Source: a virus (lineage: Duplodnaviria; Heunggongvirae; Uroviricota; Caudoviricetes). From it: a stretch of 21,544 bases of DNA. A program made the position numbers and the translations under genes. The stretch's first letter is position 1, and every line of letters begins with the position of its first letter. The stretch lies in IMG/VR virus record IMGVR_UViG_2537561688_000020. One strand, given 5' to 3'. Below the pieces are notes generated by a model. The model did no database searches. It was not told the origin of the DNA and saw only the letters and a program-made list of their open reading frames with translations. Positions 386-10,058 of this stretch are shown here, one piece after another.

Positions 386-1624
386 ATGGCGCTGTCTGAT
401 GCGTGGTTGCGTTCAGTCGTTGGAAAGGAACGTGATAAGGTTTTGGTTAAATCCGATCGTGATGGTCTGTCTGTCAGAGTATCACCGAAAGGTCGCGTAG
501 TGTTCCAATATCGTTATCAATGGGCAGGGAAAGGTGAGCGCCTTGATATCGGAACTTACCCGGCAACTGGATTAAAAGAGGCCAGAGAAGAAGTTATCCG
601 TCTCCGTGGTGAACTCGAGTCAAACCGCAATCCACGATTAGTCAAGCAGGCTGAAAAACGAAAAGCTACTGAAGCCATGACGGTAGAGTCTGTGATCCGT
701 GCCTGGTATGAAGCATATTGTGTAAAAAATAAAAAAGGTTCTGAACAGATACTCCGCTCGTTTGAGCTGCACCTGTTCTCTAAAATCGGGAATATCCCTC
801 ACGATGCAGCTACATTGCATGATTGGTTAGAAGTCCTAGAGCCTCTTAGCACCAAGACTCCAGCAATAGTAGACCGATTGCTAATTAACGCAAAGCAGGC
901 TCATGTCTGGGCGTATAAGAGAAAGCTCATTGAAACTCGCCCACTGTCGGATATCACGGGTAAAGATATGGATATCCGTAAAGGTCAGAAAAAACGGTTT
1001 CTGACACATGATGAAATTAGCATCCTTTATGCTGCGATCGATGGTTCTCGAATGGTTCCTAAATACCGAGCCTTCATTAAACTATTGCTGCATTTTGGTT
1101 GCCGTAGTTCAGAGCTAATTACTGCTAGGGTGGATGATTTTGATTTCATAAATAAGGTATGGACTGTACCACCAGAACGACATAAGACTGGGGACATAAC
1201 AGGCGAACCGCTAAAGCGGCCCATTATTGAACCGGTTGAAGAGCTTATAAAATACGTTATCTCTATGAACAACGGTTCCGATATGCTTTTTACTAAGGAA
1301 GGAAGCAGGGAGCCAGTTGGTCGGACATCATTGCAGTCGCTGCCTTACAATTTAATGCAGTTCGCATGGCGACGTTTGGGGTATCAATTTCCTCATTGGT
1401 CTCTTCATGATTTGAGACGAACAGCACGAACAAACTTTTCTGATCTTACTGCGCCTCATATTGCTGAAATAATGCTCGGTCATAAACTGCCAGGGGTATG
1501 GCAAGTTTATGATAAGAGCGATTATCTAGAAGAACAGCGTAAAGCCTATCAGGCATGGTGGGATAGGGTTGAATCGATTCTTACTTACACTAATTTAGGT
1601 TCCAACAGACAGCCTATTGAATAA
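386..1624 (+). CDS. int: Phage tyrosine integrase (P4-type, N-terminal arm-binding domain)
   Basis: 412-aa ORF. N-terminal arm-binding-like region (LSVRVSPKGRVVFQYRYQWAGKGERLDIGTYP). C-terminal catalytic signatures HDLRRTARTNF and a downstream Tyr (VWQVYDKSDY). Sits next to the att-like prfC fragment. Confidence 0.9.
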   Translation: MALSDAWLRSVVGKERDKVLVKSDRDGLSVRVSPKGRVVFQYRYQWAGKGERLDIGTYPATGLKEAREEVIRLRGELESNRNPRLVKQAEKRKATEAMTVESVIRAWYEAYCVKNKKGSEQILRSFELHLFSKIGNIPHDAATLHDWLEVLEPLSTKTPAIVDRLLINAKQAHVWAYKRKLIETRPLSDITGKDMDIRKGQKKRFLTHDEISILYAAIDGSRMVPKYRAFIKLLLHFGCRSSELITARVDDFDFINKVWTVPPERHKTGDITGEPLKRPIIEPVEELIKYVISMNNGSDMLFTKEGSREPVGRTSLQSLPYNLMQFAWRRLGYQFPHWSLHDLRRTARTNFSDLTAPHIAEIMLGHKLPGVWQVYDKSDYLEEQRKAYQAWWDRVESILTYTNLGSNRQPIE

Positions 1625-1738
1625 TGAATAGACATACAGAGTAAGAAAATAGTAATGATTCTTGGATTATAATTAACTGATTGCTGATATTTCGATTTGC
1701 CGATTTATGAAGAGACGGTCATTATACTTATAAAAACA

Positions 1739-1770
1739 CCACTCCTTATCCTTACAGAAATAAGGAGTGG
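1739..1770. terminator. Bidirectional hairpin between convergent int and deaminase genes
   Basis: Inverted repeat ccactccttat (1739-1749) / ataaggagtgg (1760-1770) with a 10-nt loop. Flanked by an A-run on the + strand and a T-run on the - strand (reverse complement of 1731-1738). Confidence 0.5.
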
Positions 1771-1776
1771 AAACAG

Positions 1777-3372
1777 TTATGGCTGAGACTCTGGTTTAGC
1801 AATCTCGTTTATAAATTTCTTAGCTACAACAGTCTCATACTTTCTATAATCATCAAGATATTGAACATCTATATGATTTTTGTAGCGAGCATTAAATTTA
1901 TTTGCAGCCCCTGTTTTATCATCTTTACGTTCATCCGTTGGTCTGAAAAATTTATGGTAGCGGCGGGGTGATACCCCCTCAAAATCACAAAATATTACTT
2001 TGGAAGATTCTTCGTTCTTTGTTATTGCATCATTATGCAGATCAAGAGCAAGGCTTTTATCAAATGGCTCTATATATACTACTTTTTTTATTCCAGATGC
2101 GACAATATGCCTTGCACAGTTGTGGCAGGGGTAGGTTGTCGTAAAAAGAATTTTATCTTTAGTATCGCCGTTTTGTTTTCTAGCCATTGATGTAATGACG
2201 TCCATTTCAGCATGAATTGATCTGGAGTACTCCATTACACTTGATATTTTGCTGTCTTTGTAAATGCCTTCTGCAATATTATCTAATTTGTTTAGAAGTC
2301 GTGTTATATTAATATCGGCAACAGTTTGTCCTGCGGAAATACCTAATACACTTCTTACTTCGGTTGATAATATGCTTTTTATACGGTCTTTAATTTTTAG
2401 CTTGTTTGCATCATTATAACACTTACCACTTTTGTGAACGCATCGATGATCGTTATCAAAATCATCACTGCTATACAACCCGCCACCAGCTTTAGGTACG
2501 TCGTTCTTACCCACGGCAAGCAAATTCCCTTCATCATCAAACAGTGCAGCCCCTACTTGACGTGATAAACAAGCTGATTGTAATGATGTTGAAAAGGCAG
2601 CATACATACCTTTCTCGTTAAAAGTTGGTGTTAAACCATTTTTGCCATGAATAAGACCGAAAAACCGATCAATCTTCTTCTTTAATTCACTTTTTTGGCT
2701 GAAGTTATTTTTAATAAAAAAATCTGAATCAAGAATGGTTTCCCCGGTTCTTTGTCCATACGGATCAGAGGATTTATTATCAATATTGATAATTAAATGA
2801 AGGTCGTCCTTTGCCGATTCGTCAGCAATGAGATTCGGAATTCGGTAATCTAAATCGCGCAAAACTCCTAACAAATAGAAATTATGCTGATATATAACTC
2901 TGAATAACTCTATTTCTTCCGGCCTTTTGAATTGATCAATGATGAAGACAGTACCTTTATATTCATCATTATTATAATCAATATTCTTTTTCGCTGTTGC
3001 GATTGCTGCAATAGCAGCTTCTGCAAGCAACTCATTTTTTTCGTAATGTTTACGAAGTTTATTGGCAATATCCTGGAGTTTTAAATGTCTATTAACTTGT
3101 GTGCTTTCGGATACCTTCAGTGCTGCTGGCTCAAAATATAATGGGTCTTCCATAAGCGCACTTATGCGGATGTGTACAACATTATCCCCCCATTCTTTGG
3201 ATATCTCTTCGATAATTTTGTTTATCGTTCTCATGCCACATCCAACATATCCACACAATCCAAGATAAATATCTTTTGATTGTCGTGAATTCACAATCTC
3301 AAGTGATGATGCCGATGTTGAGCCTTTTTTTTCATTCAGCTTTTGTGGAGTTTTTTTTGCTGCTTCAGCCAT
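1777..3372 (-). CDS. dcdV: DcdV-like anti-phage deoxycytidylate (dCTP/dCMP) deaminase: N-terminal P-loop-like domain fused to C-terminal zinc CDA-fold deaminase
   Basis: 531-aa ORF. C-terminal zinc-deaminase signature: CLSRQVGAALF, then HAE (H387/E389), then PCHNC (C416/C419) and GIKKVVY, as in dCMP deaminases. N-terminal glycine-rich P-loop-like stretch GLCGYVGCGMRT. About 32% GC in a sampled stretch versus about 60% in the replication genes. Int-proximal cargo position. Confidence 0.7.
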   Translation of the reverse strand: MAEAAKKTPQKLNEKKGSTSASSLEIVNSRQSKDIYLGLCGYVGCGMRTINKIIEEISKEWGDNVVHIRISALMEDPLYFEPAALKVSESTQVNRHLKLQDIANKLRKHYEKNELLAEAAIAAIATAKKNIDYNNDEYKGTVFIIDQFKRPEEIELFRVIYQHNFYLLGVLRDLDYRIPNLIADESAKDDLHLIINIDNKSSDPYGQRTGETILDSDFFIKNNFSQKSELKKKIDRFFGLIHGKNGLTPTFNEKGMYAAFSTSLQSACLSRQVGAALFDDEGNLLAVGKNDVPKAGGGLYSSDDFDNDHRCVHKSGKCYNDANKLKIKDRIKSILSTEVRSVLGISAGQTVADINITRLLNKLDNIAEGIYKDSKISSVMEYSRSIHAEMDVITSMARKQNGDTKDKILFTTTYPCHNCARHIVASGIKKVVYIEPFDKSLALDLHNDAITKNEESSKVIFCDFEGVSPRRYHKFFRPTDERKDDKTGAANKFNARYKNHIDVQYLDDYRKYETVVAKKFINEIAKPESQP

Positions 3373-6633: not shown

Positions 6634-6996
6634 TTAATGACCTGCTGCGCGGAGTTTTCCGTCAGGTTCACCGGCAAGAGTCAGTAATTGTCCCTGGTCT
6701 TCCTGCAGAATAGTCAGGCGACCACCGCGATTGACATACATCGGCGTTTCGGTGGTGTCTTCTTCGGAAATTTTCCCGCGGTTAGTCGGGCGGACATATG
6801 AGAGTTTATGTTTGATTTTCACACGGCTCTCATCAAACGGTTCGATTTCCAGGTTGAGTGAGACCTTACCTTTGGTTTTCGTGTTCATCACACCGGAAGC
6901 GACTTCACTGAGAACTGCGCCGATTTTGGTTTCAAATACGCCGCCGTCCAGCTCCCCGATAAATGCCTGTACATCAGTACTGCGTTCGCTAGCCAT
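6634..6996 (-). CDS. Hypothetical early-left protein (120 aa; YfdP-like position)
   Basis: Start placed at the ATG at 6994-6996, preceded by GAGGAG. The ORF-track N-terminal extension to 7227 overlaps a GC-rich stem-loop region and is probably not translated. Confidence 0.5.
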   Translation of the reverse strand: MASERSTDVQAFIGELDGGVFETKIGAVLSEVASGVMNTKTKGKVSLNLEIEPFDESRVKIKHKLSYVRPTNRGKISEEDTTETPMYVNRGGRLTILQEDQGQLLTLAGEPDGKLRAAGH

Positions 6997-7597
6997 TTTG
7001 CTGCTCCTCATCATATCGACCCTGCAAGGTCGGTTGGTTTCTCCACAAAACAGAGAAGAACACCTGCGGTGGCAGCCGCCCGGATGGATTGGGTTATGAG
7101 CCCGTCGTCCGGTGATGCTCTTCTCTGTTTTGTAAAAAGAGCGGTACCAGCCGGAAGCAAGTGTACAAACTGGTACCGCCAAAGCAGTGGCTGTTGTGGT
7201 GGGGTTGTCACTCAGGCGTATGGTCAACCTGACAATCCGGTGTCCTCAACGGGGAAAGAGTAACCCCGCCATACTTACCGCCGCGCCATTTCGCGGATTA
7301 CCACAACGCTGAGAGCACTTAGCCAGTTACGGCACCACACTTTGTCGCGGTTCCATAAATGCCCTCATCGTTGCACCCTGGTCTCTTCCCAGGCGTCAAA
7401 CCGAATCGCCACGCTGGTTAGGCGTCTTATCAGCATCATCATTGACTTGCACATTCCGGCTACCTGGTTTGTTTGCTCGAGCAAGGAGTGGATTGTCCCC
7501 TTTAACGTCACCAGACCGCTAACGACGCATGTGCCATACGCCGTGTTACAACCAAATTTTGTTTTAATCTTGCCTGTGTTATGTTTCTTTTAGATAC

Positions 7598-7625
7598 ATT
7601 ATGTATCTCATGGGTACATTGTCAA
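7598..7625 (-). promoter_or_regulatory. Candidate early-left promoter (pL-like) with overlapping 17-bp palindromic operator
   Basis: On the - strand: TTGACA (reverse complement of 7620-7625), 16-nt spacer, CATAAT (reverse complement of 7598-7603). Perfect palindrome agatacat-t-atgtatct at 7592-7608 overlaps the -10 element. Confidence 0.4.
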
Positions 7626-7629
7626 GCAT

Positions 7630-7651
7630 AAAAAAACCTGCCGAAGCAGGT
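7630..7651 (-). terminator. Rho-independent terminator downstream of the repressor gene
   Basis: Hairpin acctgc-cgaa-gcaggt (7636-7651) followed on the - strand by a 6-7 U run (reverse complement of 7630-7635). Lies 14 bp past the repressor stop. Confidence 0.55.
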
Positions 7652-7664
7652 TCATAAATATTGA

Positions 7665-8339
7665 TTAGGCCTTTATTGTGTATCTTCTTGGTTTTCCCGA
7701 GAAAATCACTGTACCAATTATAGAGCAATTACCGTTAATCTTAATGTAAGGCTCAGGCCAGTTTGGGTTTAATGCTTTGAGATAACGCTGTGTTCCATCT
7801 TCTATCAACCGCTTGAAGGTGGTTTCGCCTGAATCGTGCATCAATGCAATAACGTCGTCACCGTGGCAGGCAGGGACTTCAGGATCTACAAAAATCATGT
7901 CTCCCGGGCGGTACTCATCAATCATTGAATCACCAATCACCCGCAAGATATAAGTCATTTCGCCACAGGGTACAGGGCAGGGATAAGTTTCTGCTGTGCT
8001 CAAATCAACCTCAGAATAGCCAACTTCTTTCCATGCTCCGGCCTGTACCCATGATATGACAGGGACTAACGTTATTTGTTTGTTAGTAATTGAAACATCA
8101 GGTTTTTTTGTGATGTTTGTTGTCTGGTGTTCTTGATCAAGCCATCCGACAGGCAGGTCGAAACATTTTTCGATGTGCCGTGCCATGCTGTCACCGATAT
8201 TTTTAGTAGCACCATCTCCCATAAACCTGCTGGTCTGGGTTGGCTCGCGATCAATCATGGTGGCAAAGGAAGAATTCCCGCCAACACCATCTCTCAGTTT
8301 TCTGGCGTTAGACCGCCGGATGTCATGGACTGTTTTCAT
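7665..8339 (-). CDS. CI-like prophage repressor (N-terminal HTH plus C-terminal S24 LexA-like peptidase domain)
   Basis: 224-aa ORF. C-terminal S24 signatures (RVIGDSM, later Lys) and an N-terminal phage CI-type DNA-binding region. Divergent from a Cro-like gene. Confidence 0.85.
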   Translation of the reverse strand: MKTVHDIRRSNARKLRDGVGGNSSFATMIDREPTQTSRFMGDGATKNIGDSMARHIEKCFDLPVGWLDQEHQTTNITKKPDVSITNKQITLVPVISWVQAGAWKEVGYSEVDLSTAETYPCPVPCGEMTYILRVIGDSMIDEYRPGDMIFVDPEVPACHGDDVIALMHDSGETTFKRLIEDGTQRYLKALNPNWPEPYIKINGNCSIIGTVIFSGKPRRYTIKA

Positions 8340-8355
8340 AAAGAAATTAAAACCT

Positions 8356-8374
8356 TTGTACCGATAAGGTACAA
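8356..8374. promoter_or_regulatory. Candidate operator palindrome in the cI-cro intergenic region
   Basis: Perfect inverted repeat TTGTACC-gataa-GGTACAA, just upstream of a candidate rightward promoter (TTGAAG 8380-8385, 16 nt, TAATAT 8402-8407). Confidence 0.45.
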
Positions 8375-8661: not shown

Positions 8662-9225
8662 ATGAGGCTAACCGTGGGTAAGCATCACTGGAAAGTAGAA
8701 AAACAGCCTGAGTGGTACGTGAAAGCTGTCAGAAAAACTATCGCGGCGTTGCCGGGGGGTTACGCTGAAGCTGCTGAGTGGCTGGATGTAACAGAGAACG
8801 CTTTATTCAACCGCCTTCGTGCAGATGGCGATCAGATTTTCCCGCTGGGATGGGCAATGATTTTACAGCGCGCGGCTGGCACTCACTACATTGCGGATGC
8901 TGTCGCACAGTCTGCTGGTGGGGTGTTTGTATCGCTTCCTGAAATTGAGGAAGTAGAGAACGCCGATATAAACCAGCGCCTGCTGGAAGTCATCGAACAG
9001 ATCGGGAGTTACTCAAAGCAGATTCGTTCGGCAATCGAAGATGGGGTAGTGGAGCCACACGAGCAGACAGCAATTAATGATGAGTTGTATCTGTCAATTT
9101 CGAAGCTCCAGGAGCATGCAGCACTGGTCTACAAAATCTTTTGCGCTCCAGAAAAGAGTGACGCCCGCGAGTGTGCAGCTCCGGGCGTCGTGGCGTTTTG
9201 TGTCTGTGGAGAAACTAACGCATGA
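8662..9225 (+). CDS. Hypothetical protein in cII position (possible CII/YdaT-like regulator)
   Basis: 187-aa ORF, first gene after cro, translationally coupled to the next gene (ATGA overlap). Family assignment is tentative. Confidence 0.4.
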   Translation: MRLTVGKHHWKVEKQPEWYVKAVRKTIAALPGGYAEAAEWLDVTENALFNRLRADGDQIFPLGWAMILQRAAGTHYIADAVAQSAGGVFVSLPEIEEVENADINQRLLEVIEQIGSYSKQIRSAIEDGVVEPHEQTAINDELYLSISKLQEHAALVYKIFCAPEKSDARECAAPGVVAFCVCGETNA

Positions 9226-10058
9226 ACAGTTTAACGGCAAATAACCGTTTGTCGCAACAGCTGGTGGTCAGCGTCGCTGAACACCTGTTGTTACGGCATG
9301 AATGCAGATTACCAAATCTCCTGGCTGTAAGTAACCACAGAGAACTTTACCTGACTGTGGGGGGCGAGTTGTGCAGGAACTTAACCGCTGGTTTCGTGAC
9401 GGAAGAGGACTTTATGTTCATGTTATTCGTTGGGAGCCAGAAACACAGCGCGTTATCTATCTTCGCAAAGACTACCCGCATGAGTGCTTTAGCCCTTTGT
9501 GGAAATTCAGGCGTGATTTTGTTGAGTGTGAAGGACCACCAGCACATTGATTCTGCCATTCCGGGACGTTACACTGTTCAGGCACCTTATAAAGCGGGTG
9601 TCGGGATTGGCGTCCTGGAATTGCATACGGCGACAATTGGCGCGTTAGCGTCTTTTTTGTTGCTACAACTCAGCTATACCCAAATTATGGTGGGCTGGGT
9701 GGGGGCACCGAAAGGTGCGCCGGTTTCCGTATGCGCCGGTTACGCCAACCCTGCTCAGTTCACCACCAGCGAAATTGGCGTTTCCGGTGGTGGAAGTTAT
9801 CCATTGCATACGGAGGCTGCCATCATGGCTACTGTCCCAGCCCTCTCTCGTCTGAATGATGAAGACTTACATAAACTCAGTTATGTAACAACTGCACTAC
9901 GTGCTCTGCGCAAGGTAACTCTTTCGGATCCGCAGGCGCATCAGGTTTTGGTAGAAACCCTTCTTAACTTGCAGGCTGAACGTATTCGTCTGGCGGATAA
10001 GGCTAATTTTCATATTCACCGTCTCCTGAATATCAGCGGAGGGCATCGTCATGCTTAA
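9222..10058 (+). CDS. Hypothetical protein
   Basis: 278-aa ORF coupled at both ends to flanking genes. No recognisable motif, no P-loop. Confidence 0.4.
   Translation: MNSLTANNRLSQQLVVSVAEHLLLRHECRLPNLLAVSNHRELYLTVGGELCRNLTAGFVTEEDFMFMLFVGSQKHSALSIFAKTTRMSALALCGNSGVILLSVKDHQHIDSAIPGRYTVQAPYKAGVGIGVLELHTATIGALASFLLLQLSYTQIMVGWVGAPKGAPVSVCAGYANPAQFTTSEIGVSGGGSYPLHTEAAIMATVPALSRLNDEDLHKLSYVTTALRALRKVTLSDPQAHQVLVETLLNLQAERIRLADKANFHIHRLLNISGGHRHA

Follow-up and report, generated by a model that had tools for sequence, protein, structure and literature searches.

In lambdoid phages, the slot between the early-left promoter pL and the early-left genes holds nutL and the gene N in lambda, and putL in HK022. 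The put RNA of HK022 acts in cis, through the zinc-binding domain of the RNA polymerase β' subunit, and suppresses both pausing and termination. A further group, the N-less lambdoid phages of the yfdPQR type, has been guessed by Casjens and colleagues to use RNA-mediated ('put-like') antitermination (PMC12315714). Here we analyzed the leader that occupies this slot in a 21,544-nt viral sequence (IMG/VR record IMGVR_UViG_2537561688_000020), the whole of which is referred to as the window. The window derives from an Stx2c-type lambdoid phage with 99.4% identity to LC727876 and its relatives, and the same leader is also carried by phages Ayreon, cdtI, and 2H10. Transcribed on the minus strand, the leader extends for ~595 nt from pL to the first early-left gene without a conserved open reading frame (ORF). 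It is non-coding and rich in structure, and its main feature is a pseudoknotted RNA of ~250 nt at 7552-7301, supported by covariation, which we call module C.

An earlier reading of this region, made from the letters alone and referred to below as the original prediction, overlooked module C. It had described an ORF-free, GC-rich, and stem-loop-rich leader in the place where an N gene would be expected, and had likened two consecutive stem-loops within it to the put RNAs of HK022-type phages. The general description agrees with our results. The G+C fraction is 0.55 over 7000-7450 versus 0.39-0.44 in the flanks, and the minus-strand RNA folds with a z-score of -5.26 relative to shuffles, compared with -2.98 for the plus strand. 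There is also no N homolog: the ORFs of the leader have no Pfam match, and none of the first downstream genes (yfdP-like, DUF2303, and HD-domain) encodes an N-like or Arg-rich product. The likeness to put is taken up below with the other possible explanations of the leader.

Structure and distribution of module C

The structure of module C is supported by covariation among 48 representatives, each less than 97% identical to the others. The core of the element (7373..7544, minus strand) scores 135.9 bits (E = 1e-39) with a covariance model of the family, R1. In order, the core consists of a P1 hairpin with the loop GGCAC, a variable P2 hairpin, the invariant joiner GGUAGCCGGAAUGUGCAAG, a variable P3, P4, and P6. 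In the window the P4 loop UAACCA pairs with GGUU to form a pseudoknot, and the P6 hairpin, CCUGG-GAAGAGA-CCAGG, closes the core. The family structure that was tested comprised P1, the variable P2, a three-way stem, P4, the pseudoknot (a P4 loop of CACC or AACC with a downstream GGUG or GGUU), and P6 with its GAAGAGA loop. Across the representatives 96.1% of cells are paired, versus 24-44% when the partners are slid by 1-3 columns. Thirteen pairs, amounting to 116 cells, have changed on both sides, and none of 500 shuffles had a covariation score as high as that observed. Among the individual pairs, one in P1 is divided between A-U (25 sequences) and G-C (23) and is never broken, one P4 pair occurs as four pair types, and a pseudoknot pair is C-G in 43 sequences and A-U in 5, again with none broken. 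The P6-type hairpin also changes in a compensatory manner in a three-way alignment, reading CCUGG..CCAGG in the window, GCCGG..CCGGC in phage P1, and CCUCG..CGAGG in the phiV10 type.

The core is followed by a 3' domain (7301..7372, minus strand) that was delineated by alignment and pair counts. This domain contains the hairpin GAGGGCA/UGCUCUC, a variable tip, and the conserved end CGUUGUGG; of its helices, helix 9 is supported and helix 8 is weaker, with 66% of cells paired. The 3' domain is present in most module C members and is also found in ST64B, SfV, Flotzy, and the relative L176. In some variants (L008, L035) the variable tip holds a string, GGUUCAAUUCCAG, that resembles the T-arm of a tRNA.

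Module C is not confined to lambdoid leaders. Positions 7301-7557 of the window are shared, at ~80% identity, with P1, P7, D6, SJ46, phiV10, TL-2011b, SPN1S, and one Klebsiella phage. The invariant 16-mer GGTAGCCGGAATGTGC occurs in at least 120 IMG/VR contigs, and a stricter pattern applied to GTDB returned 23 species, essentially all of them Enterobacteriaceae or Erwinia. The sole non-enterobacterial match of that scan, a 1753-bp contig (JAIIAN010000430.1) from a metagenome-assembled genome labelled Bacillota, may be due to contamination or mis-binning. Using megablast, module C was found in 1562 of 5426 complete E. coli genomes (~29%), at 1391 chromosomal and 550 plasmid places, none of which carries a RefSeq annotation.

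Searching the leader against Rfam 15 gave nothing at the gathering score and only noise at E values up to 10 over 6900-7760, and the P1 and phiV10-type copies of module C gave no Rfam match. Full-text searches of the literature by sequence and by topic likewise returned nothing on this element. Module C is apparently an undescribed RNA family, widespread in enterobacterial phages and prophages, and the family is probably wider than model R1 detects. BLAST reported another place in P1 as a potential second copy, and an R1 search of P1 1-48000 found none. We also noted that a clustered regularly interspaced short palindromic repeats (CRISPR) array of E. coli 2012C-4502 (NZ_CP027440.1, 1868888-1868919) holds 32 nt that are 100% identical to positions 7497-7528 of the window, in the part of module C formed by hairpins P1 and P2. 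This conserved RNA gene is therefore a target of spacer acquisition by hosts.

Terminator, hairpin, and exchangeable modules of the leader

The two inverted repeats of the original prediction lie downstream of module C, and their coordinates are exact. One is the perfect stem gcggtaccag (7141-7150) / ctggtaccgc (7170-7179), with a 19-nt loop that contains TGTACAA, and the other is acaaaacagagaaga (7045-7059) / tcttctctgttttgt (7119-7133). Both hairpins are far beyond chance because they are conserved in relatives. While both members of the proposed pair of consecutive stem-loops are thus present, their order had to be mended: in the leftward transcript the 10-bp hairpin, followed by UCUUUUU, comes first, and the 15-bp stem closes the next hairpin, which is 89 nt long. 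These hairpins were aligned in the window, ST64B, Flotzy, and SfV, and then in 97 unique relatives fetched by the hairpin loop motif.

In the RNA the 10-bp hairpin (7179-7141, minus strand; 7133..7180 with its U-run) has the stem GGCGGUACCAG/CUGGUACCGCU. In the relatives this hairpin is always directly 5' of CUUUUU(U)AC. A T-tract with an adjacent hairpin was found in 94 of the 97 relatives, with a median folding free energy of -23.8 kcal/mol and 20 distinct stem arms, and the stem differs completely between lineages (GGCGGUACC.., GUCGGCGUC.., UGCCCAUC.., GGCGGCAUC..). A G+C-rich hairpin with a 10-11-bp stem and a U-run at a conserved position is characteristic of intrinsic terminators, and we predict that the 10-bp hairpin is a positionally conserved intrinsic terminator. 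This fits the fallback suggestion in the original prediction of a termination element. The standard terminator scan missed this site because the 19-nt loop is unusually large. The string CGCUCUUUUUACAA (7133-7146), on the 3' side of the terminator, was considered as a boxA/nut site and rejected; since SfV, ST64B, and Flotzy do not preserve its GCUC part, the likeness to boxA (CGCUCUUUAACAA) is probably coincidence.

The 89-nt hairpin (7045..7133, minus strand) has a 20-bp outer stem that includes the 15-bp repeat, and a highly conserved interior, CGACGGGCUCAUAACCCAAUCCA. In 32 representatives 95.6% of cells are paired, versus 38-55% in slid controls, and 8 pairs have changed on both sides; in one pair, for example, 17 sequences have C-G and 15 have G-C. 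Covariation in relatives had been named in the original prediction as a check on the two stems. The 89-nt hairpin covaries, and the stem arms of the 10-bp hairpin covary wholesale.

When phage genomes were searched with the leader by sensitive BLAST, its segments proved to be shared with different sets of phages. Positions 6997-7201 are shared with SfV, SfII, and mEp460-type phages, and positions 7185-7307 with PPompW-type phages at ~89% identity. Relatives without module C have a different pL-proximal element of 65 nt, which we call module D. Among 113 distinct contexts 5' of the terminator/hairpin module, 36 contain module C, 29 contain module D, and 1 contains both; of the 47 that contain neither, at least some carry a module D variant, and they hold no ORF other than cI. 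Module D consists of GAACAGGCAGGACGCCCACGAAGUAGCCGCC, a hairpin, and GAUGAUUCG, with its 5' part written as GAACAGGCAGGACGCCCACG(A/C)AGUAGCCGCC. The hairpin covaries between three states, CCGGU/ACCGG, CCUGG/CCAGG, and CCCCA/UGGGG. Module D lies immediately after pL in SfV (~4085-4020, minus strand) and ST64B (~1870-1800, minus strand), and is also present in Flotzy and L176. Of this element, only the first ~12 nt (ACAGGCAAGA) are retained in the window, at ~7575-7566. The near-exclusive alternation of modules C and D is what would be expected of functionally equivalent alleles in mosaic phages. The leader of ST64B (1160-1985, minus strand) is 815 nt long and ORF-free, and contains module D, a divergent module C joiner (GUAGCCAGUGCAAGCG), the shared 3' domain, and an STnc100-like domain. 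It also holds a string resembling stem I of put, UUUAACCCACGGCGUCGGAG, which is unscored by the put model described below.

The variable domain that follows module C, module B (7193..7307, minus strand), is closed by GUUGUGGU (7307-7300) and ACCACAAC (7200-7193). Its UGGUG...CACCA closing helix is the same as that in the Rfam consensus of STnc100 (RF02076). The window copy does not match the STnc100 model at E values up to 10 over 6900-7760, and its counterpart in ST64B scores 35.1 bits (E = 4e-6, model positions 31-147 of 206), below the gathering score of 47. STnc100 and the related PasD prophage small RNAs (sRNAs) share with module B a GUGGUG/CACCAC-type closing helix, carriage by prophages, and an end near a terminator. 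The canonical STnc100 copies, however, lie 3' of stx2 among the late genes (PMC12370729), whereas module B is located in the pL leader. The GUUGU at the end of module C (7307-7303) can pair either backwards with GCAAC (7374-7370), closing the 3' domain, or forwards with CCACAAC (7200-7193), closing module B. As these two pairings are mutually exclusive, they may constitute a conformational switch; covariation favors neither.

Module B ends in the C/A-rich stretch CACCACAACAG (7191-7200), 10 nt before the terminator. This stretch contains CACAACA and is conserved in many but not all relatives. CACAACA is the target consensus of the R1 seed of GcvB, and a motif used by the prophage anti-sRNA AgvB (PMC4104026). 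A role of the leader as a GcvB sponge is pure speculation, and identity with the AgvB/AsxR anti-sRNAs was rejected: AgvB belongs to a different Rfam family, lies downstream of PR', and is unmatched here.

Upstream of the leader is a cI-like repressor gene (8339..7665, minus strand), assigned to Peptidase_S24 by Pfam. A terminator scan placed the intrinsic terminator of this gene at 7653..7634 (minus strand), immediately 5' of pL. The original prediction's candidate for pL was borne out, with TTGACA-16-CATAAT at 7625..7598 (minus strand) agreeing with the consensus at 11 of 12 positions; transcription would start near 7591. Operator-like palindromes overlap pL. The palindrome TTGTACC-N5-GGTACAA occurs as a perfect copy, TTGTACCGATAAGGTACAA, at 8356-8374 between cI and cro, and as a 3-mismatch copy over the pL spacer at 7601-7619. 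In addition, GATACATTATGTATC, a 15-bp palindrome with one central mismatch, lies over the -10 of pL at 7593-7607. All three are likely repressor operators. The TGTACAA in the terminator loop is a misfit to the repressor palindrome and was rejected as an operator.

At the downstream end of the leader, a small hairpin (7015..7034, minus strand), which in aligned relatives reads GGCGGU-GGCA-GCCGCC, is located just 5' of the Shine-Dalgarno sequence GAGGAG (7003-7008, minus strand). The first early-left gene (6634..6996, minus strand, with its ATG at 6996) encodes a yfdP-like product of 120 aa with no Pfam match, and is followed by a DUF2303 (yfdQ-like) gene and then an HD/YfbR-like gene. ARAGORN found no tRNA or tRNA remnant in the window. 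In the pR operon, Rfam matches to isrK (9582-9658, plus strand, 58.9 bits) and C4 antisense RNA (9683-9770, plus strand, 80.7 bits) lie side by side, both inside an ORF (9222-10058) whose product has an Ash-family domain. This pair represents a P1/P7-type immI-like RNA module inside a lambdoid phage.

Genomic contexts and possible functions

In 61 of 147 module C loci an S24 repressor gene lies 80-140 nt upstream on the same strand, with the repressors falling into at least two families, and module C is therefore the first thing transcribed from pL. Downstream terminators were called within 600 nt by an explicit-rule finder in 108 distinct contexts. A terminator-like hairpin 3' of module C was found on the sense strand in 74 of these, versus 16 on the antisense strand, at a median distance of 249 nt. 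The first genes 3' of module C are yfdP-like (34 loci), members of a 278-aa family (15), Ban (12), gp49_66 (11), and others, none of which is N-like. In phiV10-type phages a tRNA-Arg starts exactly where module C ends, right after CGUUGUG. It is followed by a GGCGG..CCGCC-CUUUUUACA terminator of the same type as that in the leader, a second terminator, a ribosome-binding site, and a gp49_66-family gene, with no promoter-like site between module C and that gene. In P1, module C is flanked by trnI and ban and has the orientation of the ban operon, which C1 controls. This early operon is rich in RNA genes: it contains a dicF-like region, three tRNAs, module C, and a sub-threshold STnc100 match (33.4 bits, E = 4e-4, P1 ~70080-70199, minus strand).

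We tentatively favor a reading, possible rather than probable, in which the leader, as a non-coding RNA built of modules, would act in cis to gate the early-left operon by read-through (antitermination). The transcript from pL would first yield module C (7552-7301) and then the STnc100-like domain closed by GUUGUGG/CCACAAC. It would next meet the terminator (7180-7133), directly after which come the 89-nt hairpin and the ribosome-binding site of the yfdP-like gene. Polymerases that stop at the terminator would release a non-coding RNA of ~450 nt, whose 3' end (C/A-rich stretch, terminator hairpin, and U tail) would be like that of an sRNA, and expression of the early-left genes would need read-through of the terminator. 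Module C would be the best candidate for a cis element that modifies the transcribing polymerase, following a put-like logic with an unrelated sequence and fold. The 89-nt hairpin probably serves to separate the mRNA downstream of it or to stabilize it, and could be an RNase III site such as the lambda N leader has. A cis gate is favored because the near-exclusive modules C and D sit in the nutL/N-putL slot with a conserved terminator before the first gene, and because no N-like gene follows.

Several observations weigh against a cis gate. In 45 of the 147 loci a tRNA on the same strand abuts module C, an arrangement at least as compatible with a processed stable RNA. The P1 copy is 2.3 kb away from the promoter; the tRNA gene trnI ends just 14 nt upstream of it, and ban follows 110 nt on with no terminator detected in between. 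No downstream terminator was detected in 34 of the 108 contexts. The window has one copy of module C and none 3' of pR (R1, filters off). The invariance of the joiner is partly by construction, because the homologs were gathered by an exact 16-mer; the other invariant blocks, AGCGGUC, GGCG, and GAAGAG, are independent of this retrieval. The tRNA adjacency, the RNA-rich ban operon, the lack of a terminator before ban, and the single copy fit a processed trans-acting RNA equally well. Module C might accordingly be a stable trans-acting non-coding RNA that could, for instance, serve as a decoy to a defence system or host factor or take part in tRNA metabolism, an explanation that we also regard as possible without being probable. 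It would be cut from early transcripts, the terminator would just end the RNA gene, and the position next to pL would serve only for early expression. The abutting tRNAs, among them the phiV10-type tRNA-Arg and P1 trnI, speak for such an RNA, and RNase P would define one end of module C because a tRNA abuts the element. The string of RNA genes in the ban operon and the single copy per phage point in the same direction, as does an element-terminator distance that is nearly fixed at ~250 nt despite differing content, and the conserved single-stranded joiners and pseudoknot suggest a specific macromolecular partner. However, module C has no defined 3' end of its own in lambdoid phages, and both its strict pL-proximal placement with different repressors and its alternation with module D are more typical of a cis function. 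A pseudoknotted fold with invariant joiners, placed in a 5' leader upstream of a terminator, would also suit an RNA that acts on the early transcript as a riboswitch sensing a ligand or as a self-cleaving ribozyme, and small ribozymes are common near phage tRNAs. We consider this improbable, as no Rfam family matches even at E = 10, and the neighbor of the element in P1 and phiV10-type phages, before or after it, is a tRNA and not a regulated gene. The terminator is also ~250 nt away with other domains between, which leaves no overlapping expression platform for a riboswitch.

Two further explanations are far less probable. The first is that the leader encodes a small protein or a decayed N-like gene: both strands contain ORFs of 48-83 codons, and hypothetical proteins are annotated in this region in some GenBank records. 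Beyond the missing Pfam matches, each reading phase is interrupted across the conserved motif in all but at most 5 of the 48 homologs, and the lengths of indels are not enriched for multiples of three (103 with remainder 1, 74 with remainder 0, and 70 with remainder 2). The helix substitutions in module C and the 89-nt hairpin are compensatory, and the 89-nt hairpin is incompatible with coding because some relatives have a 25-nt insertion at its tip. Reading phases and indels gave no conserved protein-coding gene in the homologs, whose detection the original prediction had named as refuting it. A coding leader is highly unlikely. The other, proposed in the original prediction itself, is that the 7045-7179 hairpins constitute a put antiterminator RNA of the HK022 type. 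This is suggested by the succession of two stem-loops in a lambdoid leader without N, and a 9-nt string, CAUGCGUCG, is common to HK022 putL and the P1 hairpin of module C. We built a covariance model, R2, from eight put RNAs that were annotated or found by BLAST (HK022 putL and putR, HK639 putL, and the putL-like RNAs of phiEt88, CobraSix, S9-5, UPF_BP1, and PdC23) and searched with the filters off. R2 recovered HK022 putL (98 bits), HK639 putL (94 bits), and HK022 putR (58 bits) but found no match in 6997-7660, the best score in the window being 9.8 bits (E = 0.39) at 9226-9318. Model R1 in turn did not match HK022 putL or putR. Moreover, the first hairpin and its U-run behave as a conserved terminator, the hairpins are ~410-550 nt from the transcription start and not adjacent to it, and the pR side, where put would have its second site, holds neither a put-like match nor a second module C. 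Membership in the put family is refuted because its testable features (R2, R1, and copy number) fail, and there is very little chance that the two hairpins are a put RNA. Homology between put and the 5' part of module C, considered for the shared 9-nt string and a similar motif order, was dropped, as R1 and R2 do not cross over. A put-like mode of action could still apply to the leader.

It is conceivable, though doubtful, that module C is an unrecognized RNA class that travels with E. coli RNA polymerase or reprograms it, the third protein-free processive antiterminator after put and the eps-associated RNA (EAR). It would then be structurally independent of both, and portable among lambdoid pL operons, the P1 ban operon, and phiV10-type tRNA operons. 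This bears on the question of how early operons are expressed in N-less lambdoid phages, including converting phages of the Stx2c, cdt, and SfV types. The leader is a concrete test object for it, with a covariation-supported RNA, a conserved terminator as the read-out, and natural module C and D alleles for swaps. Whatever its mechanism, a complex-folded RNA found in P1 and in more than a quarter of complete E. coli genomes that has neither an annotation nor an Rfam family merits a place in RNA-family databases and genome annotation.

Comparison with described systems

Module C shares with the put RNAs of HK022 and HK639 that it is non-coding, structured, and first from pL in N-less lambdoid phages, with terminators downstream and enterobacterial hosts. 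Put is ~70 nt long and has two stems with the consensus GAACGGCG...UAAACCAUGCGUCGG...GGCGGGUUCAGGAUGAACGGCAAU, whereas module C is 170-250 nt long and has at least five helices and a pseudoknot. Put sites come as a pair, putL and putR, while module C is present in a single copy and is also found beside tRNAs in P1 and phiV10-type phages. The lambda nutL/N leader occupies the same slot between pL and the early-left genes and likewise has a long duplex 5' of the ribosome-binding site of the first gene. It differs in that an N homolog and conserved boxA/boxB were not found here, and the hairpin in the window is 3' and not 5' of the terminator.

Outside the lambdoid phages, GOLLD and ROOL are conserved, complex-folded RNAs of phages and prophages that often adjoin tRNA genes and whose function is unknown. 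They are larger (~600-800 nt), occur in Firmicutes and other taxa, and form Rfam families that are unmatched here. EAR is found in Bacillales and was unmatched in the Rfam scan of the leader. Like module C it is structured, pseudoknotted, and located within an operon; in Bacillus it promotes read-through of distal terminators, and it would be the closest analogy to module C if the leader gates the early-left operon in cis.

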